A stretch of DNA of 40,000 bases from Pseudomonas fluorescens (GCF_040448305.1 NZ_CP148752.1:3978534-4018533), one strand, 5' to 3'. Positions 7,273-38,470 are shown, counted from the stretch's first letter. Numbers and translations: made by a program. The notes: a model not told the origin generated them from the letters alone.

Positions 7273-7411
7273 GTTTCGGCAAACTTTGTTTCACATTTAA
7301 AACAAATTCGTTATTTCCACACGCTCAGCGTTACTTAAAAAAGCACTGCCTGCTCGAAAATCATCGAGCCTCGCACAATCGATGTGCAATTTCGTGCCAT
7401 ATAAGAAACTA

Positions 7412-7429: not shown

Positions 7430-7565
7430 CCATCAAATCTTTAAATAACTCTTAAATCGTTGTTTTTAAATGGTTTTCCAACATAAAAACGAATCAGCCA
7501 ATCTCTGGCATTGTTCATGCACTAAACACCGTATCACCTATAAAACAGACCAGAGACCCTTCCCA

Positions 7566-8417: not shown

Positions 8418-8456
8418 TCCACGCCCGTGTGGCCATCAACCGATTGAGGAGTACGC

Positions 8457-11027: not shown

Positions 11028-11041
11028 TAATGGAGACTGTC

Positions 11042-11593: not shown

Positions 11594-11597
11594 GCCC

Positions 11598-13315: not shown

Positions 13316-13316
13316 G

Positions 13317-14114: not shown

Positions 14115-15789
14115 TGAAAATACTGTCACCGTTGGCGCTGCCATCACCGCGTTTCTCGAGCAATGCGACGTCAAGGCCGCGTTCGGTGTGATCTCGATCC
14201 ACAACATGCCGATCCTCGATGCGTTCGCCGTGCGCGGCAACATCCGTTTCGTCATGGCCCGCGGTGAAGCCGGCGCCACTAACATGGCCGACGCCTACGC
14301 CCGTACCACCGGTGGCCTGGGTGTTTGCCTGACGTCCACCGGCACCGCGGCCGGTAACGCCGCCGGGGCGATGGTCGAAGCGCTGACCGCTGGCACGCCG
14401 CTGCTGCACATCACCGGGCAAATCGAAACGCCGTATCTGGATCAGGAATTCGCTTACATCCACGAAGCCCGTGACCAGCTGACCATGCTCAAGGCTGTGT
14501 CGAAGGCCGCGTTCCGCGTGCGCAGCGTCGAAACCGCACTCAGCACCATGAAGCTGGCCGTGCAGACCGCGTTGACCGCACCGACCGGGCCGGTCAGCGT
14601 TGAAATCCCGATCGACATCCAGTCGACTTTCATCCCGATGCCGACCGACCTGTCGCCGCTGCCGGTTCCCGTTGCCGTGCCCGCACCTGAAGCACTGGAC
14701 CTGGTGGCCGAGCGCCTGGCCACGGCCACCCGTCCCCTGTTGTGGCTCGGCGGCGGCGCGCGGCATGCCGGCCCGCAAGTCAAGCGCCTGCTGGACATGG
14801 GCGTCGGCGTGATTACCTCGACCCAAGGTCGCGGTGTGGTCAACGAAGACGACGAGCGCTGCCTCGGTGCGTTCTCGCAAAACAAACTGGTCGAGCAATT
14901 CCTGCAGAGTTGCGACGCCCTGCTGATCGCCGGCTCACGACTGCGCAGCAACGAGACGTTCAAATACGCGCTGAAGTTGCCACGCAACACCCTGCGCATC
15001 GACGCCAACCCGGCCATCGAAGGTCGCAGCTACAACAGCGAACTGTTCATCTGCGGTGATTCGGCACTGGCGCTGGAAGGCCTGGCGGATCGTCTGGAAG
15101 GTCGCCTGCAAATCGACCCGACGTTCCTCGCCGAGCTCAAGCACGTGCGTGAAAAATCCCGCACGCAACTGATCGCCGACCTCGGCCCGTACTCGGCCAT
15201 GGTCGAACAGCTGCAAGCCCTGACCGGGCGCAACTTCTCGTGGGTGCGCGACGTCACGCTTTCCAACAGCATCTGGGGCAACCGCCTGCTGACACTGTTC
15301 CATCCGCGTGCCGGCGTGCATGCATTGGGCGGCGGCATTGGCCAGGGTTTGTCGATGGGCATTGGCGCGGCCGTTGCGGCAGCGGAAACGGCACCTGAGC
15401 GCAAGGTCTTCGCCCTGGCCGGCGACGGCGGTTTCATTCTCAACCTCGGCGAGCTGGCAACGCTGGTGCAAGAGAACGCCAACGTGGTGATTCTGCTGAT
15501 GAACGATCAGCGCTACGGCGTCATCCGCAACATTCAGGACGCGGTGTACGGCAGTCGCCATTGCTACGTCGACCTGCACACACCGGACTATTCCAAGCTG
15601 GCCGAGTCGCTGAACCTGCGCCATGGCCTGGTCACCGACCTGAAGGATTTCGGCAAGGTCGTCGACGGTGCACTCGCGCAGCCGGGACCGTTCCTGCTGG
15701 AAGTCGACATGCTCAGTGTCGGCAGCTTCGCCACCCAGTTCGCCGGTCCGCCCAACAGCGAAACCAAAGCGCAAAAAGCCACGGCCTGA
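14107..15789 (+). CDS. thiamine-diphosphate-dependent enzyme (acetolactate-synthase / 2-oxoacid-decarboxylase superfamily)
   Basis: N-terminal Pyr domain …FGVISIHNMPILDAF…GEAGATNMADAYAR…LTSTGTAAGNA… and the ThDP motif GDGGFILNLGELATLVQENANVVILLMND. ATG 14107 overlaps the previous gene by 8 nt. Track start 13846 is an extension. Confidence 0.85.
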   Translation: MRNENTVTVGAAITAFLEQCDVKAAFGVISIHNMPILDAFAVRGNIRFVMARGEAGATNMADAYARTTGGLGVCLTSTGTAAGNAAGAMVEALTAGTPLLHITGQIETPYLDQEFAYIHEARDQLTMLKAVSKAAFRVRSVETALSTMKLAVQTALTAPTGPVSVEIPIDIQSTFIPMPTDLSPLPVPVAVPAPEALDLVAERLATATRPLLWLGGGARHAGPQVKRLLDMGVGVITSTQGRGVVNEDDERCLGAFSQNKLVEQFLQSCDALLIAGSRLRSNETFKYALKLPRNTLRIDANPAIEGRSYNSELFICGDSALALEGLADRLEGRLQIDPTFLAELKHVREKSRTQLIADLGPYSAMVEQLQALTGRNFSWVRDVTLSNSIWGNRLLTLFHPRAGVHALGGGIGQGLSMGIGAAVAAAETAPERKVFALAGDGGFILNLGELATLVQENANVVILLMNDQRYGVIRNIQDAVYGSRHCYVDLHTPDYSKLAESLNLRHGLVTDLKDFGKVVDGALAQPGPFLLEVDMLSVGSFATQFAGPPNSETKAQKATA

Positions 15790-15799
15790 GGACTTCGCC

Positions 15800-16603
15800 A
15801 TGTTGCATATCACCATGATCGGCTGCGGCGCAATTGGCGTCGGCGTGCTCGAACTGCTGGAGAAAGACCCGCAGTTGTGCGTCGACTACGTCATCGCCTC
15901 GGCCGGTTCCGAAGAGCTTGTACGTCAAAGGCTGACCAGTTTCAAACAACCACCGCAAGTGCTGACGGCGCTACCGGCCGACGCGCGCCCCGACCTGTTG
16001 GTCGAGTGCGCCGGTCACAAAGCCATCGAAGAACATGTGTTGCCGGCGTTGGAGCGTGGCATTGCCTGCCTGATCGTCTCGGTCGGCGCGCTGTCCGAAG
16101 TCGGCCTGGTAGAGCGTCTGGAAGCGGCAGCCGAACGCGGTCAGACCCGCATCGAATTGCTGCCCGGCGCCATCGGCGGTATCGACGCCTTGTCGGCGGC
16201 CAAGGTCGGGGGCCTGGACGCGGTGAACTACACCGGACGCAAACCGGCGCGCGCCTGGAAAAACACCCCGGCTGAACAGGCCTTTGACTTGGACAACCTT
16301 ACCGAAGCCACGGTGATTTTTCAGGGCAGCGCCCGCGAAGCGGCGCACCTCTACCCGAAAAACGCCAACGTCGCCGCGACCTTGTCGCTGGCCGGTCTCG
16401 GCCTGGATCGCACCCATGTGACCCTGATCGCCGACCCACTGAGCGAGGAGAACGTCCACCACTTCGAAGCCCGCGGCGCCTTTGGCGGGTTCGAACTGAG
16501 CCTGCGTGGTAAACCGCTGCTGGCCAACCCGAAGACCTCGGCGTTGACCGTTTACAGCGTCGTCCGCGCCTTGGGCAACCACGCCCACGCGATTTCGATT
16601 TAG
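15800..16603 (+). CDS. aspartate-dehydrogenase-like NAD(P) amino-acid dehydrogenase family protein (267 aa)
   Basis: MLHITMIGCGAIGVGVLE Rossmann start, a length of 267 aa and a C-terminal …NPKTSALTVYSVVRALGN… pattern as in NadX/AspDH-domain proteins. ATG at 15800; track start 15668 is an extension. Confidence 0.7.
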   Translation: MLHITMIGCGAIGVGVLELLEKDPQLCVDYVIASAGSEELVRQRLTSFKQPPQVLTALPADARPDLLVECAGHKAIEEHVLPALERGIACLIVSVGALSEVGLVERLEAAAERGQTRIELLPGAIGGIDALSAAKVGGLDAVNYTGRKPARAWKNTPAEQAFDLDNLTEATVIFQGSAREAAHLYPKNANVAATLSLAGLGLDRTHVTLIADPLSEENVHHFEARGAFGGFELSLRGKPLLANPKTSALTVYSVVRALGNHAHAISI

Positions 16604-16612
16604 GGGACTGCG

Positions 16613-18109
16613 ATGACTCTCGAACAGACTTTACCGATCTGCATTGCTGGCCAATGGCGGCTGGGGCGTGGTGAACGCTACGCCACGTGCTACCCCGCCA
16701 CCGGCGAAGCCGTTGCCTGGCTCAACGCCGCCAGTGTCGAAGACGTTGAAGAGGCCGTGCAAGGCGCCCACCAGGCGTTTCTGCACAGCGGCTGGGCGCA
16801 GCGCAAACCTCATGAACGCGCCTGCGTGCTGTACCGCATTGCCGAGCTGATCCGTGAGCGCAGCGAAGAACTGGCGCAATTGCAGCGCCAGGACAATGGC
16901 AAGCCGATCAACGAAACCCGCGCCCTGGTGGCCAGCGCGGCCGGCACCTTCCAGTTCTTCGCCGCGGCCTGTGAAACCCTCGAAGAAACCATCACGCCGT
17001 CCCGTGGTGATTTCGTCAGCATGAGCGTTTACGAGCCGATGGGTGTGATCGCCGCGATTACACCGTGGAACTCACCGATTGCCAGCGAAGCGCAGAAAGT
17101 CGCCCCGGCCCTGGCTGCCGGCAATGCGGTGGTCATCAAACCTGCGGAAATCACTCCGCTGATGGCCTTGCAACTGGCGCGCATCTGCGAAGACGCCGGG
17201 TTGCCCAAAGGCCTGCTCAGTGTGCTGCCGGGCAAGGGCTCGCTGCTCGGCGATGCGCTGACCCGTCACCCGCTGGTCAAGCGCGTGTCGTTCACCGGCG
17301 GTACCAAAACCGGCAAGCACATTGCCCACATCGCCGCCGACAAGATGATGCCGGTGTCACTGGAACTGGGCGGCAAATCGCCGACCATCATCCTCGATGA
17401 CGCCGACCTCGACCATGCGGTGGCCGGTGTGTTGTACGGCATCTTCAGTTCTTCGGGCGAAGCCTGCATCGCCGGTTCGCGGTTGTTCGTCGCCCGCGCA
17501 CTGTATGAGCCGTTCATGGCGCGCCTGGTGGCGGCGGCAGCCGAGTTGCGTGTCGGTGATCCGGCGGATGAGCGTACGCAAATGGGCCCGCTGATCAGCG
17601 CCGGCCACCGCGAGTCGGTGGAACGCTATGTGGCGCTGGGGCTGGCAGAAGGCGGACGTCTGCTGCTCGGTGGCAAGCGCCCGAGCGGCGGCGTTTACGA
17701 CCAGGGTTACTACTACCCGCCGACCATCCTCGAAGGTTTGAACAACAGCCAGCAAGTGTGCCAGGAAGAAATCTTCGGCCCGGTGCTGGTGGCCATGCCG
17801 TTCGACGACGAAGCGCAATTGCTGGAGCAGGCCAACGACAGCCTGTACGCCCTCGCCGCCGGCATCTGGACCGGCGACTACAAGCGCGCCTGGGCGCTGG
17901 GTCGAAAAATCCAGGCCGGTACGGTGTGGATCAACACCTACAAGCAGTTCTCGATTTCCACCCCGTTCGGTGGCTGGCGCGACAGTGGCCTGGGCCGCGA
18001 AAAAGGTCGACTCGGCATCCTGCAGTACATGGAACAGAAAAGCCTTTATTGGGGCATGAATGAACAGCCACTGGCCTGGGCCGGTGTGCAACGAGAGGTA
18101 GGGTTATGA
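16613..18109 (+). CDS. NAD(P)-dependent aldehyde dehydrogenase
   Basis: ALDH Glu motif VSLELGGKSP, Cys motif SSSGEACIAGSRLFV. Length is 498 aa. Confidence 0.92.
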   Translation: MTLEQTLPICIAGQWRLGRGERYATCYPATGEAVAWLNAASVEDVEEAVQGAHQAFLHSGWAQRKPHERACVLYRIAELIRERSEELAQLQRQDNGKPINETRALVASAAGTFQFFAAACETLEETITPSRGDFVSMSVYEPMGVIAAITPWNSPIASEAQKVAPALAAGNAVVIKPAEITPLMALQLARICEDAGLPKGLLSVLPGKGSLLGDALTRHPLVKRVSFTGGTKTGKHIAHIAADKMMPVSLELGGKSPTIILDDADLDHAVAGVLYGIFSSSGEACIAGSRLFVARALYEPFMARLVAAAAELRVGDPADERTQMGPLISAGHRESVERYVALGLAEGGRLLLGGKRPSGGVYDQGYYYPPTILEGLNNSQQVCQEEIFGPVLVAMPFDDEAQLLEQANDSLYALAAGIWTGDYKRAWALGRKIQAGTVWINTYKQFSISTPFGGWRDSGLGREKGRLGILQYMEQKSLYWGMNEQPLAWAGVQREVGL

Positions 18110-26990: not shown

Positions 26991-27063
26991 TGTTCATGGC
27001 CGGTTCAGCCTGGACGGCATGCCCCTGCAACCGCATAGCTACGTGCGGCCAGCAGCAAAAGCA

Positions 27064-30000
27064 TCATGCCGTCAGGATAAAGTCCGCCTGATCGATACCT
27101 GCACTGTTAACACCGACAAGGCGAATAGAGTCCACTCCGATCCCGATCACCGTGTCCGCCCCGTCAGCCGCAATGCTCACGTTGGCAGCGAACGTTTCGC
27201 TGCTGATCCCCAGCCCCGCGATATTGAGCAAGTCCTGCCCTCCGACCGGATCGATATCGAAGCCCTGGATCGAGTCGTTGCCGAAGCCTGCCGCAGCAAA
27301 CATGAAGGTATCGTTGCCGAGGCCGCCGTTGAGCGTGTCGTCGCCCAGCCCGCCGAAGAACAGATCGTCACCCGCACCGCCAACCAGAATGTCGTTGGCC
27401 AGGCCGCCCAGCATCCTGTGGTTTGCCGCCGCGGCATCGTAGGCCAGCTCACTGCCGCTGCCCTCGGCGTTCGCCTGCAAACCCGCGGCCGCATACTGGC
27501 CGTTCAGCGCGACCTGCGTCACATGCGCACCGTCGCTTACGCTCAACATGCCGCCGGTGCCGGTGTCATTCGCTGCATAGGTGATCTGCGTATCGGCACC
27601 GAACGCAACATCGCCAAATTCCAGCTTGTCACCCGCAGTAAAACCGCTGACGCTGCCACTGAACGCCGCCGACACATCAAGCTTGAGCGTGCCTGCCGCG
27701 CCGCTGTCAAACGTCACATGCTGATCGGAGGCTGCACCGAACTCCAGTGTCGCCGAACCGCTGATTGTCGCGCTTCCCGCGCCACTGGCATCTGCGTGGA
27801 TGGTGATGTTGCCATCGTTCGCCCACAGGCTACCGCTGTTGAGGAGCGCACTTTCAATCACCAATCCGCCGCTACCACTGGCTTGCAGCACACCCGTGTT
27901 GGTGACGGCGCTGCTACCGGTATCGATCACCAGCGCATTCGCACCGCTGGCAAGGATCAGGCCCGAGTTGACCAGCATCATCTGCCCCGCTCCCAACTGG
28001 CCGGCACCCGAGATGGTGTTGTCGGCATTGGTGAGCACCGTGTCGGCGCTGCCGCCGAAAATCACGTTTTGCGCGTTGTCGGATAGCAGCACCTGGCCGC
28101 CACCGGTCAAGGTCGCGCCACGGAACAGAATCTCAAGGTTGGTCGCGCTGCCGGTGGAGCCGAGCTCGATGGTGCCGCTGTTATGGATGCTGCCACCGAA
28201 CGGCATGATCGCGCCGTCGGCAATGGTGAGGGTACCGGCGTTGTTGGTGATCGGGTCCACATCGAACTGGAAGTTCGCTTCGCTCAAGTTCGCTGCATCG
28301 ACACCTTTCAGGGTGATCGTCTGGCCGGAGCTTATGCTGACCAGTGCATTGCCATTGGCGTCGTTAGTGATGCTCAAGTCAGCAACACCGGTGACACCCG
28401 TGAAGCCGATCATGTCGATCTTGTCTGCCATGGCATCGAAACTGTAGATCTGATTGTTGCCGATCGGCTGGGCGAAGACGAAGGTGTCGGCACCGGACGA
28501 ACCGGTCAGGTTGTCGTCAGCGGACAAGGCGAAGATCGGCGTGCCGGGGGCAAAGGCCTCGACGTTATTGAATACATAGGAACTGCCCACACTGCCGTCG
28601 GCGTTAGTCCAGGTCATGTTGATGTGGAGTACCGCAGCGCCCGCGAAGCCTTCTGGTGTTGTCACGGTCAATGCTCCGGGATCGCTGGTCTGCACGGTCC
28701 AGGTGCCGTCGCCGTTGTTGATTCCGGCGTTTATAGTCCAATTTGACGGAACGTCGGCAATTGTGACAACAAAGCTATCGCTCAGGCCTGCCGATGGATC
28801 AGCAATCGCAAGGTTTATTGCTTCTCCGGACACTCCCGCAGGGTAAGTCAGGCTAATGCTTGTTGCAGCACTAACGTTGCCTGCCGCGTCCATAGCCGTG
28901 ACAAATAGCGTCTTGGTACCCATAAACTTGCCAGTCAAATCAATATTGGCGAATTGACCGCCGGTATTGGTCGTTCCGGTCCCAATTTCTGTGTCGCCGG
29001 CGCCAAACACGCCATTGCCATTGTCCAGGTAAACCTTAATGAATGAATTAGCTTCGGCGCTCCCTGAAAGCTTATGGTTTGTACCAGAGTTGTTGTAAGT
29101 CAGCCCAGTCGGTGACGCTGGCGGCGTTGTATCAATCGGAGTTTCAACGACGTTCTGCACGTTTACCGTAATCGTCTGCGTATCGATTCCGCCACTGGCG
29201 TCGGCCACCTGAACATCCACAACGTAGGCGTTGTCGCCATCGGTACCACCGACATCCTGGGGATTCTCGTAATCGGGCGCCGAATTGAACGTCAGCACCC
29301 CGCTCGAACTGATCGAGAACTTGCTGAAGTCCGTCCCGGCCGTATTCAGGAGCGAGTAGCTCAGCGTCTGCGCCGGCAGATCAGCATCGGTCGCCGCCAC
29401 CGTCGTGACCGCCGTGGTGTTCTCCGCCACATTGATCGAAGCCGTCGTACCGCCACCGTTGGAAGTGATCGTCGGTGAGTCGTTGCTGCCGGCGATATGC
29501 ACGGTGACCGAAGTGAGGGTGCCGTCCGCACTGCTCACCGCGAAGGTGTCGGTGTAGGTGGTACCGGCGGCGAACTCGTTGTGGGCGGAGTTGGCGACGT
29601 AGGTCCAGGCACCGCCGGTGCCGATGGAGAACTGGCCGTAGCTGCCGGCGGTGTTGGTTTGGGCGACGAAGGTTGCGGCGCTGTCGACGTCGCTGATGGT
29701 CAGGGTGCCGGTGGTGGAAATGTCGACGGCGGCATTGGTCTCGGTGAGGTTGGCGATGTCGGCGGACAGCACGGCGGCATCGTTGGTGCCGAGGATATGC
29801 ACGGTGACCGAAGTGAGGGTGCCGTCGGCACTGCTCACCGCGAAGGTGTCGGTGTAGGTGGTACCGGCGGCGAACTCGTTGTGGGCGGAGTTGGCGACGT
29901 AGGTCCAGGCACCGCCGGTGCCGATGGAGAACTGGCCGTAGCTGCCGGCGGTGTTGGTTTGCGCGACGAAGGTTGCGGCGCTGTCGACGTCGCTGATGGT

Positions 30001-33000
30001 CAGGGTGCCGGCGGTGGAAATGTCGACGGCGGCATTGGTCTCGGTGAGGTTGGCGATGTCGGCGGACAGCACGGAGGCATCGTTGGTGCCGAGGATATGC
30101 ACGGTGACCGAAGTGAGGGTGCCGTCGGCACTGCTCACCGCGAAGGTGTCGGTGTAGGTGGTACCGGCGGCGAACTCGTTGTGGGCGGAATTGGCGACGT
30201 AGGTCCAGGCACCGCCGGTGCCGATGGAGAACTGGCCGTAGCTGCCGGCGGTGTTGGTTTGGGCGACGAAGGTTGCGGCGCTGTCGACGTCGCTGATGGT
30301 CAGGGTGCCGGCGGTGGAAATGTCGACGGCGGCATTGGTCTCGGTGAGGTTGGCGATGTCGGCGGACAGCACGGCGGCGTCGTTGGTGCCGCTGACGGTG
30401 ACGGTCACCAGCTGGGTGTCCACGCCCCCCAGGCCGTCGCTGACTTGCACCGTAAACACCTCATCATGACTCTCGCCCGCCTTCAGCGACTGCACCGCAC
30501 TGGCGACACCATCGGTGCCATTGGCCAAGGTGTAAGTCCATTGGCCGGTGCTGTCGACGGCGATCGAGCCATAGGTGCCTGTTGGCGAGCCATTGATAGT
30601 CCATGTCGCCGTGGCGTCGTGATCGATGTCGGCCGAGCTGAACTGGCCATCGACGCTGAGCGCGGTGTCTTCCTGCACCGCGCCGGCATCGTTGCCGGTC
30701 GCGAAGCTGAGCACGGGCGCGTCATTGCTGCCGCTGACGGTGATGGTCACCAGCTGGGTGTCGACACCGCCCAGGCCGTCGCTGACCTGCACCGTAAACA
30801 CCTCATCATGACTCTCGCCAGCCTTCAGCGACTGCACCGCACTGGCGACACCATCGGTGCCATTGGCCAGCGTGTAGGTCCACTTGCCGGTGGTGTCCAC
30901 GGCGATCGAACCGTAGGTGCCGGTTGCCGCGCCATTGATGGTCCAAGTCGCCGTGGCATCGTGATCGATGTCGGTCGAGCTGAACTGGCCGTTCACGCTG
31001 AGCGTGCCGTCTTCCTGCACCGCGCCCGCAGCATTGCCCGTCGCGAAACTGAGCACGGGCGCGTCGTTGCTGCCGCTGACGGTGATAGTCACCAGTTGGG
31101 TGTCGACACCGCCGAGGCCGTCGCTGACCTGCACGCTGAACACTTCGTTGTGACTCTCGCCGGCCTTCAGCGACTGCACCGCACTGGCAACGCCATCGGT
31201 GCCATTGGCCAGCGTGTAAGTCCACTTGCCGGTGTTGTCGACGGCGATCGCGCCGTAGGTGCCTGTTGGCGAGCCATTGATGGTCCAGGTCGCCGTGGCG
31301 TCGTGATCGATGTCGGCCGAGCTGAACTGGCCATCCACGCTGAGCGTGCCGTCTTCCTGCACCGCGCCCGCAGCATTGCCCGTCGTGAAGCTGAGCACGG
31401 GCGCATCGTTACTGCCGCTGACGGTGACGGTCACCAGCTGGGTGTCGACGCCGCCCAGGCCGTCGCTGACCTGCACCGTAAACACCTCATCATGACTCTC
31501 GCCAGCCTTCAGCGACTGCACCGCACTGGCGACACCATCGGTGCCATTGGCCAGCGTGTAGGTCCACTTGCCGGTGGTGTCCACGGCGATCGAGCCGTAG
31601 GTGCCGGTTGCCGCGCCATTGATGGTCCAGGTCGCCGTGGCATCGTGATCGATGTCGGTCGAGCTGAACTGGCCATTCACGCTGAGCGTGCCGTCTTCCT
31701 GCACCGCGCCCGCAGCATTGCCGGTCGCGAAGCTGAGCACGGGCGCATCGTTGCTGCCGCTGACGGTGATAGTCACCAGTTGGGTGTCGACACCGCCGAG
31801 GCCGTCGCTGACCTGCACGCTGAACACTTCGTTGTGACTCTCGCCGGCCTTCAGCGACTGCACCGCACTGGCAACGCCATCGGTGCCATTGGCCAGGGTG
31901 TAAGTCCACTTGCCGGTGTTGTCGACGGCGATCGCGCCGTAGGTGCCTGTTGGCGAGCCATTGATGGTCCAGGTCGCCGTGGCGTCGTGATCGATGTCGG
32001 CCGAGCTGAACTGGCCATCCACGCTGAGGGTAGTGTCTTCCTGCACCGCGCCGGCATCATTGCCGGTCGCGAAGCTGAGCACGGGTGCGTCATTGCTGCC
32101 GGTAATGGTGACGGTCACCAGCTGGGTGTCCACGCCGCCCAGGCCGTCGCTGACCTGCACCGTAAACACCTCATCATGACTCTCGCCCGCCTTCAGCGAC
32201 TGCACCGCACTGGCGACACCATCGGTGCCATTGGCAAGCGTGTAGGTCCACTTGCCGGTGGTGTCCACGGCGATCGCGCCGTAGGTGCCTGTATCCGTAC
32301 CCGCAATGCTCCAAGTCGCCGTGGCGTCGTGATCGATGTCGGCCGAGCTGAACTGGCCATTCACGCTGAGCGTGGTGTCCTCCTGCACCGCGCCGGCCTC
32401 GTTGCCCGTCGCGAAACTGAGCACTGGCGCATCGTTGCTGCCGGTAATGGTGATGGTGACGGTCTGCGCCGCCGAGGCCGCGTTGCCCGCGCCGCTGTCG
32501 TCGGTGGCCACCACGGTGTAGGTGAAGCTGATGGTTTCACCGGCGCTCAGGAAGTCCAGGTTCTCGCTGCTGCTGTAGTTCCAGCTGTCCTGATCAACCG
32601 AGAAACCAGCGACCAGCGCTGCGGCCTGCGCAGCACCGAGGGTGCCGCCGCTCCAGACGAGGTCGTTATTGGAGCTTTTGCTGACCGTCACGACGTCGCT
32701 GCTGTCCAGATCGGCAAAGCTCAGCACCCCGCTGTCGCTCAGCGTGGCCGCGCCGTTGCCTTCACTCATCGCCCCGGTCGTGTCGCCGATGGTCAGCGTC
32801 GGCTGGTCGTTGGTGCCGGTCAGGGTGATCGTCACGTCCTTGGTCACCGTCGCCCCGAAGTCGTCGGTCAGCGTCACCGTGAACACTTCGGTCTTGGTCT
32901 GGCCCTCGGCCAGGTACTGCGCCGCACTGTTATTCAGCGTATAGGTCCAGCCCACGCTGCCCGCAGCACCGCCGGTGCTCTCGTCGCTGACATTGGCCAC

Positions 33001-34002
33001 CAGCGTACCCAGCGCACCGGATGGCGCACTCACGCTGGCCACATGTGCGTCATCGGCCAGGTCCACGTCGCCGAAGGCGAAGCTGCCGCTGACCACCGTG
33101 GTGCCGTCTTCGGTCACCGCACCGCTTTCGACCTCTGCCGCCGTCACCGTCGGCGCGTCATTGGTGCCAGTGATGGTGACGGTCACATTCTGCGCGACCG
33201 ACGAGCCATGACCATCGTTGATGGTGACCAGGTAAGTTTCGGTGACTGTCTGTCCCTGGGCCAGGTACTGCGCCGCCGCATTGCTCAGGTTGTACGTCCA
33301 TTGCACCGAACCGTTGGCCGCGTTCGCTGCTTCGCTTACCGCCGAGAGCTCGAACGTACCAAGATAAGTAGCGTTGCCCGCCGCCGGCGCGAACGTCGCC
33401 GTGTGCGTGTCGCTCAGGTCGATGTCGTTGAAGGTAATCGTGCCGCTGGCCGTCAGCGAGTCGGTCGTGCTCGCAGTGGTGTCGGCGTCTTCGGTCACTA
33501 TGCCGGCCTGCGCGCCGATGCAAATCGTCACACCATCATTCACACCCGAAAACTGCACTGTCGCGGTGGCCCAACTGAGCGTTCCGTTGCCGAGACGTAT
33601 CGCATAGGTAAAGCTGTCCGTCAGGAGCTCGCCAGTCGCAAGCGCCTGGAGTTGTGCCTTGAAAGCCTCTGAAAAAGTAGCGGCGTCGTAGCCGACCTTA
33701 CCGTCCGAGGTGATCCAGATCTTTGCACCATTCTCGCTGGTGTCAGTACTCGTCGCCTCAGCCCTCGCCGTATCCTGGGCCAGGAGGTCGGTCGGAGCAT
33801 AAACCTTGGTGGCAGTAGTAAGACTGTCCGCGTTGTCGAGTGACCAGAGTGTCTTCGCGCTGCCGCCGAGGTCATTGGACATGACGTCCCAATACACGAC
33901 CCCCAACAGATTTTCAGTGGAGGTAAAGACATCTTCCTTCGCCTGCGGCGTGTTGGAAAACGAAGTAACGGTTCCGCCGCTGGTAGTTGTGGTGCTAGCC
34001 AT
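27064..34002 (-). CDS. giant repetitive RTX-type adhesin-like protein (2312 aa): VCBS-type repeats, cadherin-like and Ig-like modules, beta-helix-like region, RTX nonapeptides; probable T1SS substrate
   Basis: GGGAGA RBS before ATG 34002 and no signal peptide. Repeated …WTYTL.N……VQ.L..GE…..F.V.V.DG.GG…..VT.T..G.NDAP modules. Cadherin-like …INVAENTTAVTTVAATDADLPAQTLSYSLL…FSISSSGVLTF…. RTX run GGLANDILVGGAGDDLFFGGLGDDTLNGGLGNDTF (about 27300-27415). C-terminal …VDSIRLVGVNSAGIDQADFILTA. Confidence 0.92.
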   Translation of the reverse strand: MASTTTTSGGTVTSFSNTPQAKEDVFTSTENLLGVVYWDVMSNDLGGSAKTLWSLDNADSLTTATKVYAPTDLLAQDTARAEATSTDTSENGAKIWITSDGKVGYDAATFSEAFKAQLQALATGELLTDSFTYAIRLGNGTLSWATATVQFSGVNDGVTICIGAQAGIVTEDADTTASTTDSLTASGTITFNDIDLSDTHTATFAPAAGNATYLGTFELSAVSEAANAANGSVQWTYNLSNAAAQYLAQGQTVTETYLVTINDGHGSSVAQNVTVTITGTNDAPTVTAAEVESGAVTEDGTTVVSGSFAFGDVDLADDAHVASVSAPSGALGTLVANVSDESTGGAAGSVGWTYTLNNSAAQYLAEGQTKTEVFTVTLTDDFGATVTKDVTITLTGTNDQPTLTIGDTTGAMSEGNGAATLSDSGVLSFADLDSSDVVTVSKSSNNDLVWSGGTLGAAQAAALVAGFSVDQDSWNYSSSENLDFLSAGETISFTYTVVATDDSGAGNAASAAQTVTITITGSNDAPVLSFATGNEAGAVQEDTTLSVNGQFSSADIDHDATATWSIAGTDTGTYGAIAVDTTGKWTYTLANGTDGVASAVQSLKAGESHDEVFTVQVSDGLGGVDTQLVTVTITGSNDAPVLSFATGNDAGAVQEDTTLSVDGQFSSADIDHDATATWTINGSPTGTYGAIAVDNTGKWTYTLANGTDGVASAVQSLKAGESHNEVFSVQVSDGLGGVDTQLVTITVSGSNDAPVLSFATGNAAGAVQEDGTLSVNGQFSSTDIDHDATATWTINGAATGTYGSIAVDTTGKWTYTLANGTDGVASAVQSLKAGESHDEVFTVQVSDGLGGVDTQLVTVTVSGSNDAPVLSFTTGNAAGAVQEDGTLSVDGQFSSADIDHDATATWTINGSPTGTYGAIAVDNTGKWTYTLANGTDGVASAVQSLKAGESHNEVFSVQVSDGLGGVDTQLVTITVSGSNDAPVLSFATGNAAGAVQEDGTLSVNGQFSSTDIDHDATATWTINGAATGTYGSIAVDTTGKWTYTLANGTDGVASAVQSLKAGESHDEVFTVQVSDGLGGVDTQLVTITVSGSNDAPVLSFATGNDAGAVQEDTALSVDGQFSSADIDHDATATWTINGSPTGTYGSIAVDSTGQWTYTLANGTDGVASAVQSLKAGESHDEVFTVQVSDGLGGVDTQLVTVTVSGTNDAAVLSADIANLTETNAAVDISTAGTLTISDVDSAATFVAQTNTAGSYGQFSIGTGGAWTYVANSAHNEFAAGTTYTDTFAVSSADGTLTSVTVHILGTNDASVLSADIANLTETNAAVDISTAGTLTISDVDSAATFVAQTNTAGSYGQFSIGTGGAWTYVANSAHNEFAAGTTYTDTFAVSSADGTLTSVTVHILGTNDAAVLSADIANLTETNAAVDISTTGTLTISDVDSAATFVAQTNTAGSYGQFSIGTGGAWTYVANSAHNEFAAGTTYTDTFAVSSADGTLTSVTVHIAGSNDSPTITSNGGGTTASINVAENTTAVTTVAATDADLPAQTLSYSLLNTAGTDFSKFSISSSGVLTFNSAPDYENPQDVGGTDGDNAYVVDVQVADASGGIDTQTITVNVQNVVETPIDTTPPASPTGLTYNNSGTNHKLSGSAEANSFIKVYLDNGNGVFGAGDTEIGTGTTNTGGQFANIDLTGKFMGTKTLFVTAMDAAGNVSAATSISLTYPAGVSGEAINLAIADPSAGLSDSFVVTIADVPSNWTINAGINNGDGTWTVQTSDPGALTVTTPEGFAGAAVLHINMTWTNADGSVGSSYVFNNVEAFAPGTPIFALSADDNLTGSSGADTFVFAQPIGNNQIYSFDAMADKIDMIGFTGVTGVADLSITNDANGNALVSISSGQTITLKGVDAANLSEANFQFDVDPITNNAGTLTIADGAIMPFGGSIHNSGTIELGSTGSATNLEILFRGATLTGGGQVLLSDNAQNVIFGGSADTVLTNADNTISGAGQLGAGQMMLVNSGLILASGANALVIDTGSSAVTNTGVLQASGSGGLVIESALLNSGSLWANDGNITIHADASGAGSATISGSATLEFGAASDQHVTFDSGAAGTLKLDVSAAFSGSVSGFTAGDKLEFGDVAFGADTQITYAANDTGTGGMLSVSDGAHVTQVALNGQYAAAGLQANAEGSGSELAYDAAAANHRMLGGLANDILVGGAGDDLFFGGLGDDTLNGGLGNDTFMFAAAGFGNDSIQGFDIDPVGGQDLLNIAGLGISSETFAANVSIAADGADTVIGIGVDSIRLVGVNSAGIDQADFILTA
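29485..30384 (-). repeat. 3 x 300-bp (100-aa) near-identical in-frame tandem repeat
   Basis: Units start (protein direction) at 30384, 30084 and 29784. The unit is ND(A/S)xVLSADIANLTETNAAVDIST.GTLTISDVDSAATFVAQTNTAGSYGQFSIGTGGAWTYVANSAHNEFAAGTTYTDTFAVSSADGTLTSVTVHI.G. Only a few nucleotide differences between copies. Confidence 0.95.
30385..32436 (-). repeat. 6 x 342-bp (114-aa) tandem repeat with 684-bp higher-order periodicity
   Basis: Units start at 32436, 32094, 31752, 31410, 31068 and 30726. Antisense track ORFs recur every 342 bp (30626…32336). Those at 30968 and 31652 are identical, and 30806..31225 versus 31490..31909 are nearly identical. Confidence 0.95.
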
Positions 34003-34030
34003 GTCTTTCTCCCAAGAATTTCACTCTGAG

Positions 34031-34057
34031 CAAAAAACCGCTGTGGGCCGCTAACAG
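34031..34057 (-). terminator. weak hairpin + U-run between pilZ and the adhesin gene (possible attenuator / leaky terminator)
   Basis: On the minus strand: GCUGU-UAGCGGCCC-ACAGC followed by GGUUUUUU. The stem is only 5 bp, so function is uncertain. Confidence 0.3.
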
Positions 34058-34091
34058 CCACATGCCGATTCCTCCTCAACCCACGAACACT

Positions 34092-34379
34092 TCACTCCAC
34101 CGGTACCAGCCGGCTGGCCAGCAGCTTCACGCCCACCCCGACCCTGCCGCCCTGCGGCTCAATGCGCACGATTTGTCCTTGCGCCTTGAACTTCATGGGG
34201 CCGCCGGGGGTGTCGAGTTCGATCTCGAAGTCAATCAAGCTACCCATCTGCTGCTCGCTTTCGGTTTCGAAATACAAACCGGAGGCGCTGATGTCACGGA
34301 TGACACCGCTGCCCCCGCCGATCAGTTGCAGCGACAGGGTGACTTGTTCACGGGGCTCAATTCGGTGTGCGTCTTTCAT
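34092..34379 (-). CDS. stand-alone PilZ-domain protein (predicted c-di-GMP binding), 95 aa
   Basis: Both halves of the PilZ c-di-GMP motif are present: RxxxR (HRIEPR, residues 5-10) and DxSxxG (DISASG). It is the size of a single PilZ barrel. It lies 89 nt upstream of, and co-directional with, the giant adhesin gene. Confidence 0.8.
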   Translation of the reverse strand: MKDAHRIEPREQVTLSLQLIGGGSGVIRDISASGLYFETESEQQMGSLIDFEIELDTPGGPMKFKAQGQIVRIEPQGGRVGVGVKLLASRLVPVE

Positions 34380-34449
34380 GGCTGCAGTCTAAAAACGGCC
34401 GCTGTTTTTTACATGAGTGCGCTATCCCTTTTTTTCTGGGAGTCAATCA

Positions 34450-34487
34450 CCCATGAAAACAGTGTTTTACGGGACAAATGTCATGGG
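34450..34487. promoter_or_regulatory. nested inverted repeat in the pilZ / luxR-type divergent intergenic region
   Basis: CCCATGA (34450-34456) … TCATGGG (34481-34487) enclose AAAAC-AGT-GTTTT (34456-34468). Confidence 0.35.
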
Positions 34488-34583
34488 AGGGGGTGCCTGA
34501 AGCGCTATAGAAAAAAGCTACAGGCTGCAACGATTGCTATCATGATCAGCTAACACAACCCGCCTAAAGAGGCAGCGACCCGC

Positions 34584-35249
34584 ATGCCAATCCAAGTCCA
34601 GTTAGTCGCTCTACCGCTCGTGGCCTGGGGCCTTGAGCGTCTGGTGGAAAGCGCTCAACCGAGGTTGATGCTGGCGGGCTCGGCGGCGTCGGTGGCGGAG
34701 TACCTGCTTTCACTGCACCCATACGCTCCAGATGTGGTGGTGCTGGACCTGGACAGCGAGGACTGTATCGAGTCACTGGCCGAATTGCACAGCCAGACCA
34801 AAGCCAAGATTCTGGTAGTGACAGGGTCGAGCGACGTGGCGCTGCATGACCGTGCGGTGCTGGCGGGCGCACGTGGCGTGGTGGATAAGCGGGAGTCGGC
34901 ATCCGCCTCGACATTGCTCAAGGCCATAGAAAAAGTGCATGACGGCGAACTCTGGATTGACCGCAATGCGACCAGCCGTATCTTCCTTGAACTGGCGCGC
35001 AAGAAAGTCGAGCGCGATATAGACCCGGAGCAGCAAAAAATCGCCAAACTGACGCGCCGCGAGCAGCAAACCATTGCATCGCTGGCCAGCGACCCCTCAG
35101 CCCCAGGCAAGTTGGTGGCCGAGAAACTGCACATCAGCGAGCACACGCTGCGCAACCATTTGACATCGATCTACAGCAAGCTGGGCCTGACGAACCGCGT
35201 AGATCTGTACGCCTACGCACACAAGTATGGGCTTTCCACAGGCGACTGA
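34584..35249 (+). CDS. NarL/FixJ (LuxR-HTH) response regulator with atypical receiver domain
   Basis: C-terminal LuxR HTH LTRREQQTIASLA…GKLVAEKLHISEHTLRNHLTSIYSKLGL. The receiver keeps the phospho-acceptor context VVVLDLD, T (ILVVTGS) and K (VVDKRE). The N-terminal acidic pair is replaced: VQLVALPLV versus the usual …DDHP…. Confidence 0.85.
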   Translation: MPIQVQLVALPLVAWGLERLVESAQPRLMLAGSAASVAEYLLSLHPYAPDVVVLDLDSEDCIESLAELHSQTKAKILVVTGSSDVALHDRAVLAGARGVVDKRESASASTLLKAIEKVHDGELWIDRNATSRIFLELARKKVERDIDPEQQKIAKLTRREQQTIASLASDPSAPGKLVAEKLHISEHTLRNHLTSIYSKLGLTNRVDLYAYAHKYGLSTGD

Positions 35250-35494
35250 GGACTGTGGCCATACGTGGTTCCACCTTGTCAAAAAACAGGTGTTGACTCC
35301 TCTGACAGCCTGCTGAAACCAGAGAGGAATTCGTAGGCGTCCGATGAGCCCGTGTCCAATGAGATTTCGGGCGCCCTGTTACAGGCTTTGTAGTGGCTAA
35401 ATCGTGATAAGCAGGTAAGTCGATCACTCCCAAGCGAGATGGGTGTTGTCCGGACCAGACTCACACATCCCGCAGCCCTGCCATACTGTTCAGC

Positions 35495-36235
35495 ATGACC
35501 AGTGCAACTTTCCGCTTCTTTGATGAGCTCAACGATTTCCTGCCGGCCGAACGGCGGCGGCAACCCTTCACCTGCCAGTGCGCGCAAGGGGCGACGGTCA
35601 AGCACATGATCGAGGCGCTCGGGGTGCCGCACACCGAGGTCGAACTGGTGCTGCTCAACGGTGAGTCGGTGGGCCTGGAGCGGGTGATCCTCGACAGTGA
35701 CCGGCTGGCGGTGTATCCCAAGTTCGAAGCGCTGGACATCAGCCCGCTGCTCAAGGTTCGTGCGCAACCTTTACGGGTGCTGCGTTTCGTCGCTGATGCG
35801 CACCTTGGCGGGCTGGCCAGCCTGCTGCGCATGAGCGGCTTCGACACCCTCTACGACAATGCCTTCGAGGATGGTGAGATCGCCGAGATCGCTGCGCAGC
35901 AAGGACGCATCGTGCTGACCCGCGACCGCGAACTGCTCAAGCGACGAATCATCAGCCACGGCTGTTATGTGCATGCCCTGAAACCGTCGCTGCAGCTGCG
36001 CGAATTGTACGAGCGCCTCGATCTGGCGCGTAGCGCACGGCCATTCAGCCTGTGCCTTCATTGCAACCTGCCACTGCACGAGATCAGCCTGGAACTGGCC
36101 CGGACGCAGGTGCCGCCACGCATTGGCGTCCTCTATTCACGCTTCCTGCGTTGCGACGCCTGCCAACGGGTTTACTGGGAGGGTTCGCACTGGCGCGGTA
36201 TGTGCGCATTGCTGGCACCGCTGCTGAACCGATAG
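35495..36235 (+). CDS. Mut7-C RNase-domain (PIN-like, DUF82) protein with N-terminal ubiquitin/ThiS-like domain and C-terminal zinc ribbon
   Basis: N-terminal FRFFDELNDFLP…ATVKHMIEALGVPHTEVELVLLNGESV, central RFVADAHLGGLASLLRMSGFD…IVLTRDRELLKR, and C-terminal CLHCN…CDACQRVYWEGSHW (CxxC…CxxC). Confidence 0.8.
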   Translation: MTSATFRFFDELNDFLPAERRRQPFTCQCAQGATVKHMIEALGVPHTEVELVLLNGESVGLERVILDSDRLAVYPKFEALDISPLLKVRAQPLRVLRFVADAHLGGLASLLRMSGFDTLYDNAFEDGEIAEIAAQQGRIVLTRDRELLKRRIISHGCYVHALKPSLQLRELYERLDLARSARPFSLCLHCNLPLHEISLELARTQVPPRIGVLYSRFLRCDACQRVYWEGSHWRGMCALLAPLLNR

Positions 36236-36343
36236 CCGCCAGCCCTTGGCGGACACAAAATAACAAAATTGCCATGTGCTCCCTTCGTTCCTTCTTGCGT
36301 CGCACTGTTCATTGCCCGTTCCCGTACGTCTGGAGTTTCCCCA

Positions 36344-38470
36344 ATGCCCTCGCCTGAATACTTGCCCGCTGCGCTGCTGGGCCTGGCCCTTGTTTGTCCG
36401 GCCATGACCGAGGCTCAGGGCCTGGAGCTGGGACAAGTGCTGATTGGCGCCGAGGACCAGAGCGACGAAGACCAGGGGATCGAGGACGCCAGGGCCCGGC
36501 TGGCCCAGGTTCCCGGCGGCACCAACCTGGTCGACATGCGCCGTCCGTTGCAGGGCCGCGTGGCCAGCAATCAGGATGTGCTGGCGTACCAGCCGGGGAT
36601 CTATGCGCAGTCGGCGGGCAACGAAGGGGTGAAGATCTCGATCCGCGGATCGGGCATCAACCGTGCACCGGGCGCCCATGCCTCGGGGCTGTACACCCTG
36701 CTCGACGGCCTGCCGCTGACCGGCCCCGGCGGCACGCCCTATGAATTGCTGGAACCACTGTGGCTCGACCATGTGGAGGTGCTACGCGGCGCCAATGGGT
36801 TCGACCGGGGCGCTCTGGCCCTGGGCGGGGCCATCGATTACGTCAGCCATACCGGCTACGACGCACCGAAGTTGCAGGTACGTTACGCAACGGGCAGTCA
36901 CGGCTATCAGCAGCGCCAGATCAGTTCAGGGCAAGTGCTCGGCGCCTTCGATTACTACGTGGCCATGACCGATGCCGACGCCGACGGCTACCAGGACCAC
37001 ACGGCCAGCGAGAGCCAGGGTGTCATCGCCAACTTCGGTTATCGCTTCAACGCCAACCTGGAAACACGCTTCTACCTGCGCCACCGCCAGACCGACAACG
37101 ACCTCGCGGGACGGGTGACCAAGCACTCCATCGAGCATGACCCACGGGCGGCCAACCCGGCCTACGTGGCGCGGGACGACCGCCGCGACGAGCCGGGCAG
37201 CACCTTTATCGGCAACAAGACCACCTGGTACATCGATGACGATTCGAGCATCCAGACCGGCCTTGTCTACCACGACTATCCCATGGACTTGAGCGAGGGT
37301 CCCAACCGCCTGAAGGTGGCATACACCGACGTCAGCGGCACGTTCGACTACAAGCGTCGCGACACGCTTTGGGGGCTGGAAAGCCGAAGCACCCTGGGCC
37401 TGCGAGTGACCAAACACCTGCCCAATGCCGGCGCCAGTGAGTTCGTGCGCATCCCCACCGGCAACACCGCCGGTTATGCACCGGGCACACTGATTCGCAA
37501 CTTCACCTACCAGGGCTCGGACACGGTTCTGCATGTCGGCAACGACCTGGAGATCGCCGACGACCTGTGGCTGACCACCGGCCTCGCCGCGATCTACACC
37601 CGCCGCGAAAGCGATGTCACCTACCCGCAAGAAGGTGGCAAGACCAGCCTGCACGACTGGGACTACGCCCCGCGCGTGGGCCTGCGCTACCAACTGACAC
37701 CGGACCTGCAACTGTTCGGCAATCTCAGCCGCTCGGTCGAGGCGCCGCACCCATGGTCGCTAATCTATAGCTCGAACATCCGATTCCCCGCAGGCAGCGG
37801 CGTCGCCACGGGCGCCCAGCGCCAACCAATCACGCTGCAAAACCAGACCGCCACTACCCTGGAAATCGGCGGCCGCGGTGACAGCACGCTGGGGCAGTGG
37901 AGCCTGGCCTGGTACTACGCCCAGGTGCGCCACGAACTGCTTTCGGTGCTGCCCGACGCCAACGCCACCACGCCCTACGAGCTCAACGCCAGCCCCACCG
38001 TGCACCAGGGCGTGGAAGCCAGCCTGCTGAGCCCCCTCTGGTCGCCGGAGGATGGCGGCCAATTGAGCCTGCGCCAGAGCTATACCTTCAGTGACTTCCA
38101 CTACCGCGACGATGAGCGCTTCGGCGACAACCGCCTGCCGGGCCTGCCGATGCACTATTACCAGGGCGAACTGCGCTACGACTGGCCACAAGGCTTTTTC
38201 GCCGCGGTCAACACGCAATGGGTGTCCAAAGTGGCGGTCGATTACGCCAACAGCTACTACGCCGATCCCTACGCCATATTCGGCGCCACACTGGGCTACA
38301 ACGCGCCCAAGGGTGACTGGCAGACCTGGCTGGACATGCGCAACCTGACCGACAAGCACTATGCCGCCACGGTCACGCCGGGCTACGACGACAAAGGGCT
38401 GGACGCGGCACGATCCACCCCAGGCGAGGGCATGGCGATGTACCTCGGGGTGTCGTGGAGCCTGCTCTGA
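36344..38470 (+). CDS. TonB-dependent outer-membrane receptor
   Basis: Signal peptide MPSPEYLPAALLGLALVCPAMTEAQG and plug motif VEVLRGANGFDRGALALGGAIDYVSH, followed by a long beta-barrel with a Tyr/Asp/Gly-rich strand pattern. ATG 36344 has GGAG 8 nt upstream. Track start 36269 is an extension. Confidence 0.85.
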   Translation: MPSPEYLPAALLGLALVCPAMTEAQGLELGQVLIGAEDQSDEDQGIEDARARLAQVPGGTNLVDMRRPLQGRVASNQDVLAYQPGIYAQSAGNEGVKISIRGSGINRAPGAHASGLYTLLDGLPLTGPGGTPYELLEPLWLDHVEVLRGANGFDRGALALGGAIDYVSHTGYDAPKLQVRYATGSHGYQQRQISSGQVLGAFDYYVAMTDADADGYQDHTASESQGVIANFGYRFNANLETRFYLRHRQTDNDLAGRVTKHSIEHDPRAANPAYVARDDRRDEPGSTFIGNKTTWYIDDDSSIQTGLVYHDYPMDLSEGPNRLKVAYTDVSGTFDYKRRDTLWGLESRSTLGLRVTKHLPNAGASEFVRIPTGNTAGYAPGTLIRNFTYQGSDTVLHVGNDLEIADDLWLTTGLAAIYTRRESDVTYPQEGGKTSLHDWDYAPRVGLRYQLTPDLQLFGNLSRSVEAPHPWSLIYSSNIRFPAGSGVATGAQRQPITLQNQTATTLEIGGRGDSTLGQWSLAWYYAQVRHELLSVLPDANATTPYELNASPTVHQGVEASLLSPLWSPEDGGQLSLRQSYTFSDFHYRDDERFGDNRLPGLPMHYYQGELRYDWPQGFFAAVNTQWVSKVAVDYANSYYADPYAIFGATLGYNAPKGDWQTWLDMRNLTDKHYAATVTPGYDDKGLDAARSTPGEGMAMYLGVSWSLL

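Follow-up and report, generated by a model that had tools for sequence, protein, structure and literature searches.

How might a giant surface adhesin come under the control of cyclic di-GMP (c-di-GMP) at a locus that carries none of the usual machinery? To our knowledge, c-di-GMP control of giant Pseudomonas adhesins is understood almost entirely through LapD/LapG proteolysis. The question is raised by a 40,000-nucleotide stretch of Pseudomonas fluorescens DNA (NZ_CP148752.1:3978534-4018533, hereafter the window), in which a gene for a 2312-aa repeats-in-toxin (RTX) adhesin (27064..34002, minus strand) follows a gene for a 95-aa stand-alone PilZ domain protein, a predicted c-di-GMP receptor (34092..34379, minus strand), and an orphan atypical NarL/LuxR-family response regulator of 221 aa is encoded on the other side (34584..35249, plus strand). 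A spacer of 89 nt separates pilZ from the adhesin gene, and 204 bp lie between pilZ and the divergent regulator gene. The original prediction, made from the sequence of the window, had described these coordinates, gaps and strands, both PilZ motifs and a degenerate receiver in the regulator, and all of these were confirmed. We find that the PilZ-regulator-adhesin cassette is a real, non-random feature, and that it is probably one representative of a conserved regulatory cassette that couples c-di-GMP to a NarL-type regulator for the control of adjoining adhesion genes. Because the sensor-regulator pair recurs beside different attachment genes, the cassette looks like an undescribed, portable PilZ-regulator switch for surface attachment, carrying an adhesin in this case.

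To assess what the PilZ gene is consistently linked to, we surveyed its homologues across genomes. A PilZ profile scan with one genome per species returned 79 loci and contig look-ups added more; of 81 distinct loci (numbered with the prefix L), 77 had enough upstream sequence to judge regulator linkage. A homologue of the window regulator lies within 3.5 kb of the PilZ gene in 61 of these 77, in several layouts: a divergent orphan regulator (31 loci), a divergent regulator with a kinase (15 loci), kinase, regulator and PilZ on a single strand (7 loci), and regulator and PilZ on a single strand with no kinase detected (8 loci). The reverse also holds, as all three regulator homologues (63-68% identity) picked solely for their long contigs adjoin a divergent gene for an 84-93-aa PilZ protein. 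Within Pseudomonas, the order of regulator, diverging from PilZ followed by adhesin, is kept in 16 of 16 species matched, and the nearest Burkholderiales relatives keep the regulator, the PilZ protein and a type I secretion system (T1SS) substrate, often with T1SS ATP-binding cassette (ABC) and membrane fusion protein (MFP) genes attached. The three genes are thus conserved as neighbours, as the original prediction required.

The genes downstream of pilZ are less constant. In the closest clade, defined by PilZ identity of at least 57% (25 loci), a T1SS substrate is encoded directly downstream in 21 loci. The RTX/T1SS substrates found downstream of pilZ range from 245 to 3237 aa, and T1SS ABC and MFP genes follow directly in L005, L023, L030, L032, L048, L060 and L076. 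T1SS evidence was found in only 9 of the 56 more distant loci, whose cargo includes RTX proteins (with Big_13 or Cadherin_5 domains, and a 2311-aa peroxidase-RTX protein), a curlin-repeat protein, an exopolysaccharide (EPS) priming glycosyltransferase and a complete Tad/Flp pilus operon; some downstream genes, for example a POT transporter, are apparently unrelated. PilZ is thus the hub of the arrangement: the gene found beside it most constantly is that of the regulator, and its downstream cargo usually consists of adhesion or secretion genes. The idea that it is dedicated to the adhesin consequently did not survive: with a constant regulator and varying cargo, the data point to a general regulatory cassette for adhesion loci and not to an adhesin-specific adaptor.

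The intergenic DNA supports a regulatory relation between the two divergent genes. An operator-like 18-bp palindrome, CCATGACATTTGTCCCGT (34469..34486, minus strand), occurs once in the 40-kb window, halfway between the start codons of pilZ and the regulator gene, a position from which it could act on both promoters. L005 has the ancestral form, CCATGACA-TT-TGTCATGG, as a perfect palindrome. The window palindrome lies about 106 bp 5' of the pilZ ATG, and of the 24 loci in the closest clade that could be scored, a strict search for the GA[CT]-N4-GT[CA] core pattern placed it between -103 and -116 in 22; a relaxed search recovered 3-mismatch variants at the same position in L025 and L028. The palindrome is also found in L044 and L083, whose PilZ proteins are only 38-46% identical to that of the window. 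Its position, conserved in several genera, suggests that the regulator binds it, and the GAC-N4-GTC core has what we take to be the spacing of the DosR box. A second conserved block, CATGATAGCAA-N4-TTGCA (34525..34544), lies nearer the regulator start codon, is seen upstream in Pseudomonas, Polaromonas and Rhodoferax loci, and may act as a further operator or as part of a promoter. A sigma-70 promoter scan of the 204-bp divergent region found no site.

Two further features concern the expression of pilZ and of the gene behind it. In the 89-nt spacer, sequence and fold indicate a hairpin followed by a U6 run (34032..34062, minus strand) that may be an attenuator or weak terminator; the fold is no better than that of shuffled sequence (z -1.2), and cleaner hairpins with a U-run occupy the same position in L005, L023 and L030, so that both Pseudomonas and Burkholderiales have such a structure between pilZ and the gene behind it. 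Separately, the pilZ leader (34380-34450, minus strand, about 70 nt) contains sequence blocks that are conserved between genera (TCCCAG-A6-G-GAG, an invariant CATG, and ACTG 6-8 nt 5' of the start codon) and no Shine-Dalgarno sequence, and may act as promoter, half-site or leader element. A c-di-GMP riboswitch or other known RNA in this leader was considered and rejected, as Rfam returned nothing relevant and a match to a GRIK4 3' untranslated region arose by chance (19 bits, cutoff 38).

The predicted sensor half of the pair has the sequence motifs and the modelled fold of a PilZ-type c-di-GMP receptor. The 95-aa protein matches PF07238 with 36.2 bits (cutoff 22.5, E 8e-9) and carries both c-di-GMP motifs, R6-IEP-R10 (RxxxR) and D29-ISAS-G34 ([D/N]xSxxG). 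Among 28 PilZ homologues, down to 43% identity, both arginines of the first motif and the serine and glycine of the second are invariant, and the aspartate of the second is nearly so (D/N). An AlphaFold model (pLDDT 92) is an all-beta barrel, whose best Foldseek matches among solved structures are c-di-GMP-bound BcsA, Alg44, VCA0042 and MotI at TM scores of 0.69-0.73; a search of the PilZ profile against PDB chain sequences gave chance antibody matches only. Pfam score, binding motifs and fold agree in placing the protein in the PilZ family, and motifs and model together suggest that it binds c-di-GMP. The subfamily is large, comprising at least 588 clusters at 50% identity (E<=1e-10); the 150 members listed span 61-196 aa, all but two are shorter than 150 aa, and nearly all are single-domain proteins of 61-146 aa.

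The regulator has the full architecture of its family, with a C-terminal GerE helix-turn-helix (HTH; 42.2 bits in Pfam) and an N-terminal receiver (REC) domain that scores 29.2 bits, just below the 30.2 cutoff. DevR/DosR is its best PDB sequence match, phmmer aligning residues 16-213 with DevR (E 1e-13), and the regulator aligns end to end with DevR, VraR and NarL. Its AlphaFold model shows a complete NarL-type fold that matches LiaR, VraR and NarL (E 5e-12 to 2e-10), and HTH and receiver together place it in the NarL/FixJ/LuxR fold. The receiver retains D55, T80 and K102 and has lost the acidic pair (DD) that binds Mg2+ for phosphotransfer, having V8-A9 and a one-residue deletion instead; no cognate histidine kinase is encoded alongside it in the 40-kb window. 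The same V-A with one-residue deletion is found in orphan regulators of Pseudomonas, Polaromonas, Rhodoferax, Ramlibacter and Gallionellaceae. A HisKA_3 kinase is present in 22 more distant PilZ-linked loci, and DD is kept in all kinase-linked regulators. Loss of DD therefore tracks the absence of an adjoining kinase, most orphans lacking DD, with a minority (L038, L049, L060 and L083) that keep it in the absence of an adjoining kinase.

A motif at the start of helix alpha-6 gives the regulator a second point of likeness to known proteins. Here W124-I-D-R127 aligns by phmmer with W131-L-T-R134 of VpsT, and in the AlphaFold model it stands, as in VpsT, at the start of a long helix spanning residues 127-145. 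The pattern W-[ILMV]-D-R predominates at this position across the aligned regulators, with a few variants such as WLDP, WMDQ, WLSH and WLDG, and DevR, VraR and NarL have neither the W nor the R. The VpsT-type c-di-GMP pattern, which Krasteva et al. are said to have given in 2010, is reportedly W[F/L/M][T/S]R. Strict VpsT membership was rejected, as Asp replaces Thr/Ser and the Ile after W124 falls outside [F/L/M].

How, then, could the two proteins work together? We propose, tentatively and with somewhat less than even confidence, that the PilZ protein acts as a c-di-GMP adaptor on the regulator. The orphan NarL/LuxR-type regulator would bind the palindrome as a dimer and control pilZ transcription from the divergent promoter region, and adhesin transcription would be reached by read-through of the weak hairpin or from a further promoter. 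The 95-aa PilZ protein would sense c-di-GMP and modulate the regulator as a trans-acting adaptor, supplying in the kinase-less, DD-less lineage the input that phosphorylation gives to the kinase-linked relatives. Because PilZ would thereby replace phosphorylation as the input of the regulator, high c-di-GMP would be expected to raise adhesin production, with export through a T1SS encoded elsewhere. We favor this adaptor role because the pair is conserved in several layouts, because the state of the receiver tracks the kinase, and because precedents exist for PilZ proteins that act on regulators or receivers, namely TssZ on HinK (PMC10912698), HapZ on the REC domain of SagS (bioRxiv 10.1101/2020.02.11.943704) and MrkH/MrkI (PMC3161979). 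A contact between PilZ and regulator is what their conserved pairing suggests, and the direction of regulation, toward activation, is likewise a prediction. Of the two mechanisms put forward in the original prediction, modulation of the DD-less regulator by PilZ fits these data better, and gating of secretion or anchoring fits them less well.

Several observations weigh against the adaptor role and the coupling of the three genes. A divergent layout would be equally expected if pilZ were merely a target gene of the regulator, and the palindrome was not found in the kinase-linked loci. The hairpin and U-run in the spacer may uncouple pilZ and adhesin transcription. No PilZ fused to a regulator (REC or HTH) occurs among the top 150 family representatives, and REC-PilZ and PilZ-HTH fusions have been reported in other PilZ clusters (survey, bioRxiv 10.1101/2020.02.11.943704). 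Finally, a PilZ gene with a T1SS substrate and no regulator nearby is found in L032, L035, L048 and L076, three of which have ABC and MFP genes too, so the PilZ-T1SS link also recurs alone.

The strongest alternative is that the PilZ protein is an output and not an input: the regulator would switch it on along with whatever adhesion locus comes next, and in its c-di-GMP-bound form it would act on a third party common to these loci, the flagellar motor being the most plausible, and halt swimming as adhesins are deployed. It would then resemble the EpsE clutch inside the Bacillus eps operon or the small PilZ brakes DgrA and MotL. A shared target would be a parsimonious account of why pilZ is always the first same-strand gene of very different adhesion systems and of the four loci just named, in which PilZ and cargo are linked with no local regulator; an operator 5' of pilZ fits a simple relation of regulator and target, and MotI/DgrA and YcgR are among the structural matches, though all PilZ domains look alike. 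We nevertheless consider this alternative rather unlikely. A flagellar or chemotaxis gene is linked in no locus examined, pilZ follows kinase and regulator on the same strand in seven loci as a third signalling component would, and structural similarity does not separate PilZ subfamilies.

A second alternative holds that the regulator itself senses c-di-GMP as VpsT does, with the PilZ protein as a second, independent effector or a competing c-di-GMP buffer. It draws on the alignment of W124-I-D-R127 with VpsT W131-L-T-R134, on the predominance of W-[ILMV]-D-R at the start of the long helix, on the absence of the W and R from DevR, VraR and NarL, and on a receiver that is non-canonical in both proteins. 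The arginine matters in VpsT, where R134A abolishes c-di-GMP binding (PMC3359988), and another NarL-type regulator, FsnR, binds c-di-GMP (PMC9600515). The third motif residue is however Asp and not Thr/Ser, which puts a negative charge where the phosphate would sit, and kinase-linked members with DD, to all appearance ordinary phospho-regulators, conserve the motif just as well, making direct sensing by the regulator distinctly improbable.

The weakest alternative, that PilZ gates export by binding the T1SS ABC protein or the C-terminus of the substrate and so licenses secretion or anchoring in place of LapD/LapG control, has in its favor the T1SS substrate directly downstream of pilZ in 21 of the 25 closest-clade loci, the ABC/MFP genes that follow directly in the seven loci listed above, top structural matches (BcsA and Alg44) that are PilZ domains gating polysaccharide export, and an adhesin with no LapG-type module, yet we judge it very improbable, as this PilZ-regulator pair also stands at the head of Tad, EPS and curlin-repeat loci in which a T1SS is lacking, the Pseudomonas cassette is itself devoid of T1SS genes, and the more distant loci give T1SS evidence in only 9 of 56 cases.

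The adaptor role can also be extended into a more speculative history, which we regard as unlikely to be correct in all of its parts jointly. An ancestral module of HisKA_3 kinase, NarL-type regulator and small PilZ protein would have integrated phosphorylation and c-di-GMP; the kinase and the DD pocket would then have been lost in a Burkholderiales lineage, leaving PilZ-c-di-GMP as the sole activating input of the regulator, and the resulting cassette would later have been transferred to Pseudomonas. The PilZ protein would dock on the VpsT-like W-x-D-R helix. If this exchange of phosphate for a second messenger were widespread, two genes and a palindromic operator would make a portable switch that renders any downstream adhesion locus c-di-GMP-responsive, be it one for an RTX adhesin and its T1SS, for Tad pili, for EPS or for a curli-like protein.

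Mobility of the cassette can be judged from its edges, which we mapped by blastn of the window against 15 other Pseudomonas loci. Homology limits at both ends delineate a discrete unit of about 8.2 kb (27025..35260, both strands). On the regulator side, homology to the Pseudomonas loci ends no more than about 10 bp from the regulator stop codon; on the adhesin side it ends about 38 nt 3' of the adhesin stop codon, where the flanks diverge beyond a shared tgcttttgctgctggccgcacgtagctatgcggttgcag. This shared sequence belongs to a conserved hairpin just 3' of the stop codon that marks the adhesin-side edge (27025..27063, minus strand). Contexts vary on both sides, with 11 different ones among 12 Pseudomonas loci with usable flank on the regulator side and 4 among 6 usable flanks on the adhesin side. 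The nearest relatives outside Pseudomonas are in Burkholderiales (Rhodoferax, Polaromonas) and Gallionellaceae, and identities between the window and these beta-proteobacteria (PilZ 58-69%, regulator 67-76%, adhesin N-terminal domain up to 63%) are unusually high for a comparison of beta- with gamma-proteobacteria. Given these identities and the varied contexts, we read the whole cassette as a horizontally transferred unit. A plasmid or phage origin was rejected: DNA and protein searches gave no plasmid match to the cassette, and no integrase or transposase adjoins it in the window or in L001-L004.

The surroundings of the unit offer some further observations. The edges at 27025 and 35255-35265 are the same within a few bases in all Pseudomonas loci, including L010-L022 and L031, and no long terminal repeats were seen; repetitive extragenic palindrome (REP)-like palindromes lie 3' of the adhesin-side hairpin in L014, L015 and L031. 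Relatives of the P. monachiensis type (L001-L004, L015) have only about 1.2 kb between the adhesin stop codon and the homologue of window 1-950, so that relative to these loci window ~950-27025 (about 26 kb) is an inserted or replaced block abutting the cassette. The block contains genes for a DUF5801 protein, an ABC importer, a LysR regulator, an alcohol dehydrogenase (ADH) and a K+ channel, together with an aromatic-type catabolic cluster: short-chain dehydrogenases/reductases (SDRs), cupin, hydrolase, IclR, thiamine pyrophosphate (TPP) enzyme, aldehyde dehydrogenase, extradiol dioxygenase, and a Rieske/VanA-like oxygenase and reductase. Directly past the regulator-side edge is a gene for a Mut7-C RNase with an N-terminal ubiquitin-like Ub-Mut7C domain (35495-36235, plus strand), followed by a TonB-dependent receptor gene at 36269-38470; this flank is common to L014.

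The adhesin is the variable end of the unit. Across the Pseudomonas loci it ranges from about 1630 to 2944 aa, and assemblies frequently break inside its repeats. The window protein begins with a conserved cadherin/VCBS-like N-terminal domain, followed by divergent VCBS domains, tandem repeats (6.1 x 342-bp, 89% identical, and 3 x 300-bp, 98% identical), a cadherin domain, a beta-helix-like region, RTX nonapeptides and a C-terminal secretion signal; Pfam and NCBIfam matches comprise Cadherin_4 (x11), Big_9 (x9), VCBS (x13) and one cadherin domain. The C-terminal RTX block (residues 2199-2232, HemolysinCabind 32.8 bits) has 3-4 nonapeptides, and there is a single Cys in 2312 aa. The C-terminal 330 aa are 85-93% identical among Pseudomonas orthologues, and the N-terminal domain shares 40-63% identity with PilZ-linked adhesins from Polaromonas and Gallionellaceae. 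T1SS-secreted RTX adhesins are acidic, Cys-poor repeat proteins with C-terminal GGxGxD nonapeptides, an uncleaved C-terminal signal and no N-terminal signal peptide, and by its nonapeptides, single Cys and conserved C-terminus the protein is predicted to be one of them. As had been claimed, T1SS genes are missing from its neighborhood: ABC, MFP and outer-membrane protein (OMP) genes were found neither among the large open reading frames (ORFs) scanned in the 40-kb window nor in the Pseudomonas relatives, and export presumably depends on a T1SS whose genes lie elsewhere in the genome. Another large protein made of repeats, about 1410-1433 aa long and with four DUF5801 domains, is encoded at 2594-6895 (plus strand); its C-terminus resembles a T1SS secretion signal, and it has no GGxGxD nonapeptides and no adjoining T1SS genes. 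With this protein and the adhesin, the window encodes two probable T1SS-type surface proteins and no exporter.

LapG-type control of the adhesin was rejected. The claim that it is not a LapG-type adhesin stands: no Pfam or NCBIfam model for a retention module matched, and neither lapD nor lapG was found in the 40-kb window, as also claimed. What needs correcting is the stated absence of cleavage-site strings, which do occur, PAAG at residue 206 and AAAG at 2171 and 2236. Orthologues have AAQG, PAGG or PAEG in place of the string at residue 206, which is set within a VCBS domain and not behind a retention module, and for these reasons it is not taken to be a LapG site.

Loci from other genomes add some observations on the cargo. 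In L033, L039, L090 (1-5754) and L091 (1-5902), which are Ramlibacter-like, the orphan regulator-PilZ pair heads complete Tad/Flp loci with prepilin peptidase A24, RcpC, secretin, Flp pilins and a TadG-like protein, and a ZIP transporter gene is repeatedly found on the regulator side. The metagenomic locus L005, which has the perfect palindrome, is flanked at 7252-9111 and 14395-16917 by cyclic-nucleotide genes: a patatin that binds cyclic nucleoside monophosphates (cNMP), a Crp-like cNMP-binding protein and a class III nucleotidyl cyclase with a MerR-like N-terminus. In L063, a Thiotrichales metagenome-assembled genome (MAG), a curlin-repeat protein of 1003 aa, unusually long for its kind, is encoded directly downstream of kinase, regulator and PilZ (10433-13444). 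In L076, a Gallionella MAG, the gene between PilZ and the T1SS ABC/MFP genes (10487-17422) encodes the peroxidase-RTX protein mentioned above, with an animal-haem-peroxidase domain, RTX repeats and a serralysin C-terminal domain in its 2311 aa.

Taken together, the cassette points to a transcription-level c-di-GMP route, made of a PilZ adaptor and a kinase-less response regulator, and to a control route that can be acquired horizontally along with its adhesin. Among c-di-GMP receptors, single-domain PilZ proteins are the most abundant class, and for the majority of them no partner is known; the conserved adjacency described here gives a candidate partner for an orphan PilZ family of at least 588 sequence clusters. 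The cassette also supplies a defined operator, and the naturally occurring range of regulators, from those linked to a kinase to those with none, allows the wiring and rewiring of two-component and c-di-GMP signalling to be tested. The PilZ-regulator pair can further serve as a marker of loci for adhesion and biofilm formation in environmental bacteria that have been little studied, above all in Burkholderiales.

The logic of the cassette had been thought not to have been described before. A prior description of a PilZ and NarL-type regulator cassette was indeed not found in the full-text literature, with most subscription journals outside coverage; a close precedent in concept is mrkHI, which controls its adjoining fimbrial locus in response to c-di-GMP (PMC3161979). 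MrkH/MrkI of Klebsiella pneumoniae, encoded beside the mrkABCDF type 3 fimbriae (PMC3161979), are the closest analogue: like the cassette, they combine a PilZ receptor with a FixJ/LuxR-family regulator that has a receiver-like N-terminus and are encoded beside an adhesin locus, the likeness of MrkI to the window regulator being one of description. MrkH is however a two-domain protein of 234 aa that binds DNA itself, and because the window PilZ is a bare single barrel of 95 aa, the cassette is not a member of the mrkHI family. Moreover, mrkH and mrkI are co-transcribed whereas the window genes diverge around a palindromic operator, the mrk cargo is chaperone-usher fimbriae in place of a T1SS RTX adhesin, and no phosphodiesterase gene such as mrkJ is attached to the cassette.

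The PilZ protein itself is most like TssZ(PA0012) and HapZ of P. aeruginosa, which are also stand-alone and about 100 aa long, with RxxxR at residues 5-9 in TssZ and at a similar place (6-10) in the window protein. TssZ binds the transcription factor HinK (PMC10912698) and HapZ binds the REC domain of SagS (bioRxiv 10.1101/2020.02.11.943704), and in both cases the c-di-GMP level is relayed. Their partners, a LysR-type regulator and a hybrid kinase, are not encoded beside the PilZ gene and there is no adhesin cargo, whereas the partner of the window PilZ is suggested by conserved adjacency.

On the side of the regulator, VpsT of Vibrio cholerae, BrpT and CsgD are likewise LuxR/CsgD-type proteins with a non-canonical receiver, and theirs drive biofilm-matrix genes; BrpT controls CabA, a calcium-binding matrix protein secreted by a T1SS. 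VpsT and the window regulator share the W-x-x-R aligned at the start of alpha-6, which reads W[F/L/M][T/S]R in the VpsT motif and W-I-D-R in the window, and they align over the C-terminal half only (E 4.6e-10). VpsT, moreover, binds c-di-GMP directly, with no PilZ partner. Compared by description, PprAB of P. aeruginosa (PMC3510237) is similar in output: its NarL/LuxR-family regulator turns on the BapA T1SS RTX adhesin, Flp/Tad pili, CupE and other fimbriae, a regulon that resembles the cargo range of the PilZ-regulator pair. PprB differs in being a classical phospho-regulator: it is paired with a cognate kinase and not with a PilZ protein, and no input from c-di-GMP has been described for it.

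The Lap system of P. fluorescens (PMC3032545) is the established link between c-di-GMP and a giant T1SS RTX adhesin in Pseudomonas, and a survey of the Pseudomonas matrix lists LapA, LapF, MapA, PsmE and CdrA and not this adhesin or module (PMC7716237). Control of LapA is post-translational: a retention module at the N-terminus is cut by LapG, which LapD restrains. In the window, lapD and lapG are absent, and the adhesin has neither a retention module nor a conserved di-alanine site. Here, unlike in the Lap system, the predicted c-di-GMP receptor is a PilZ protein paired with a transcription factor.

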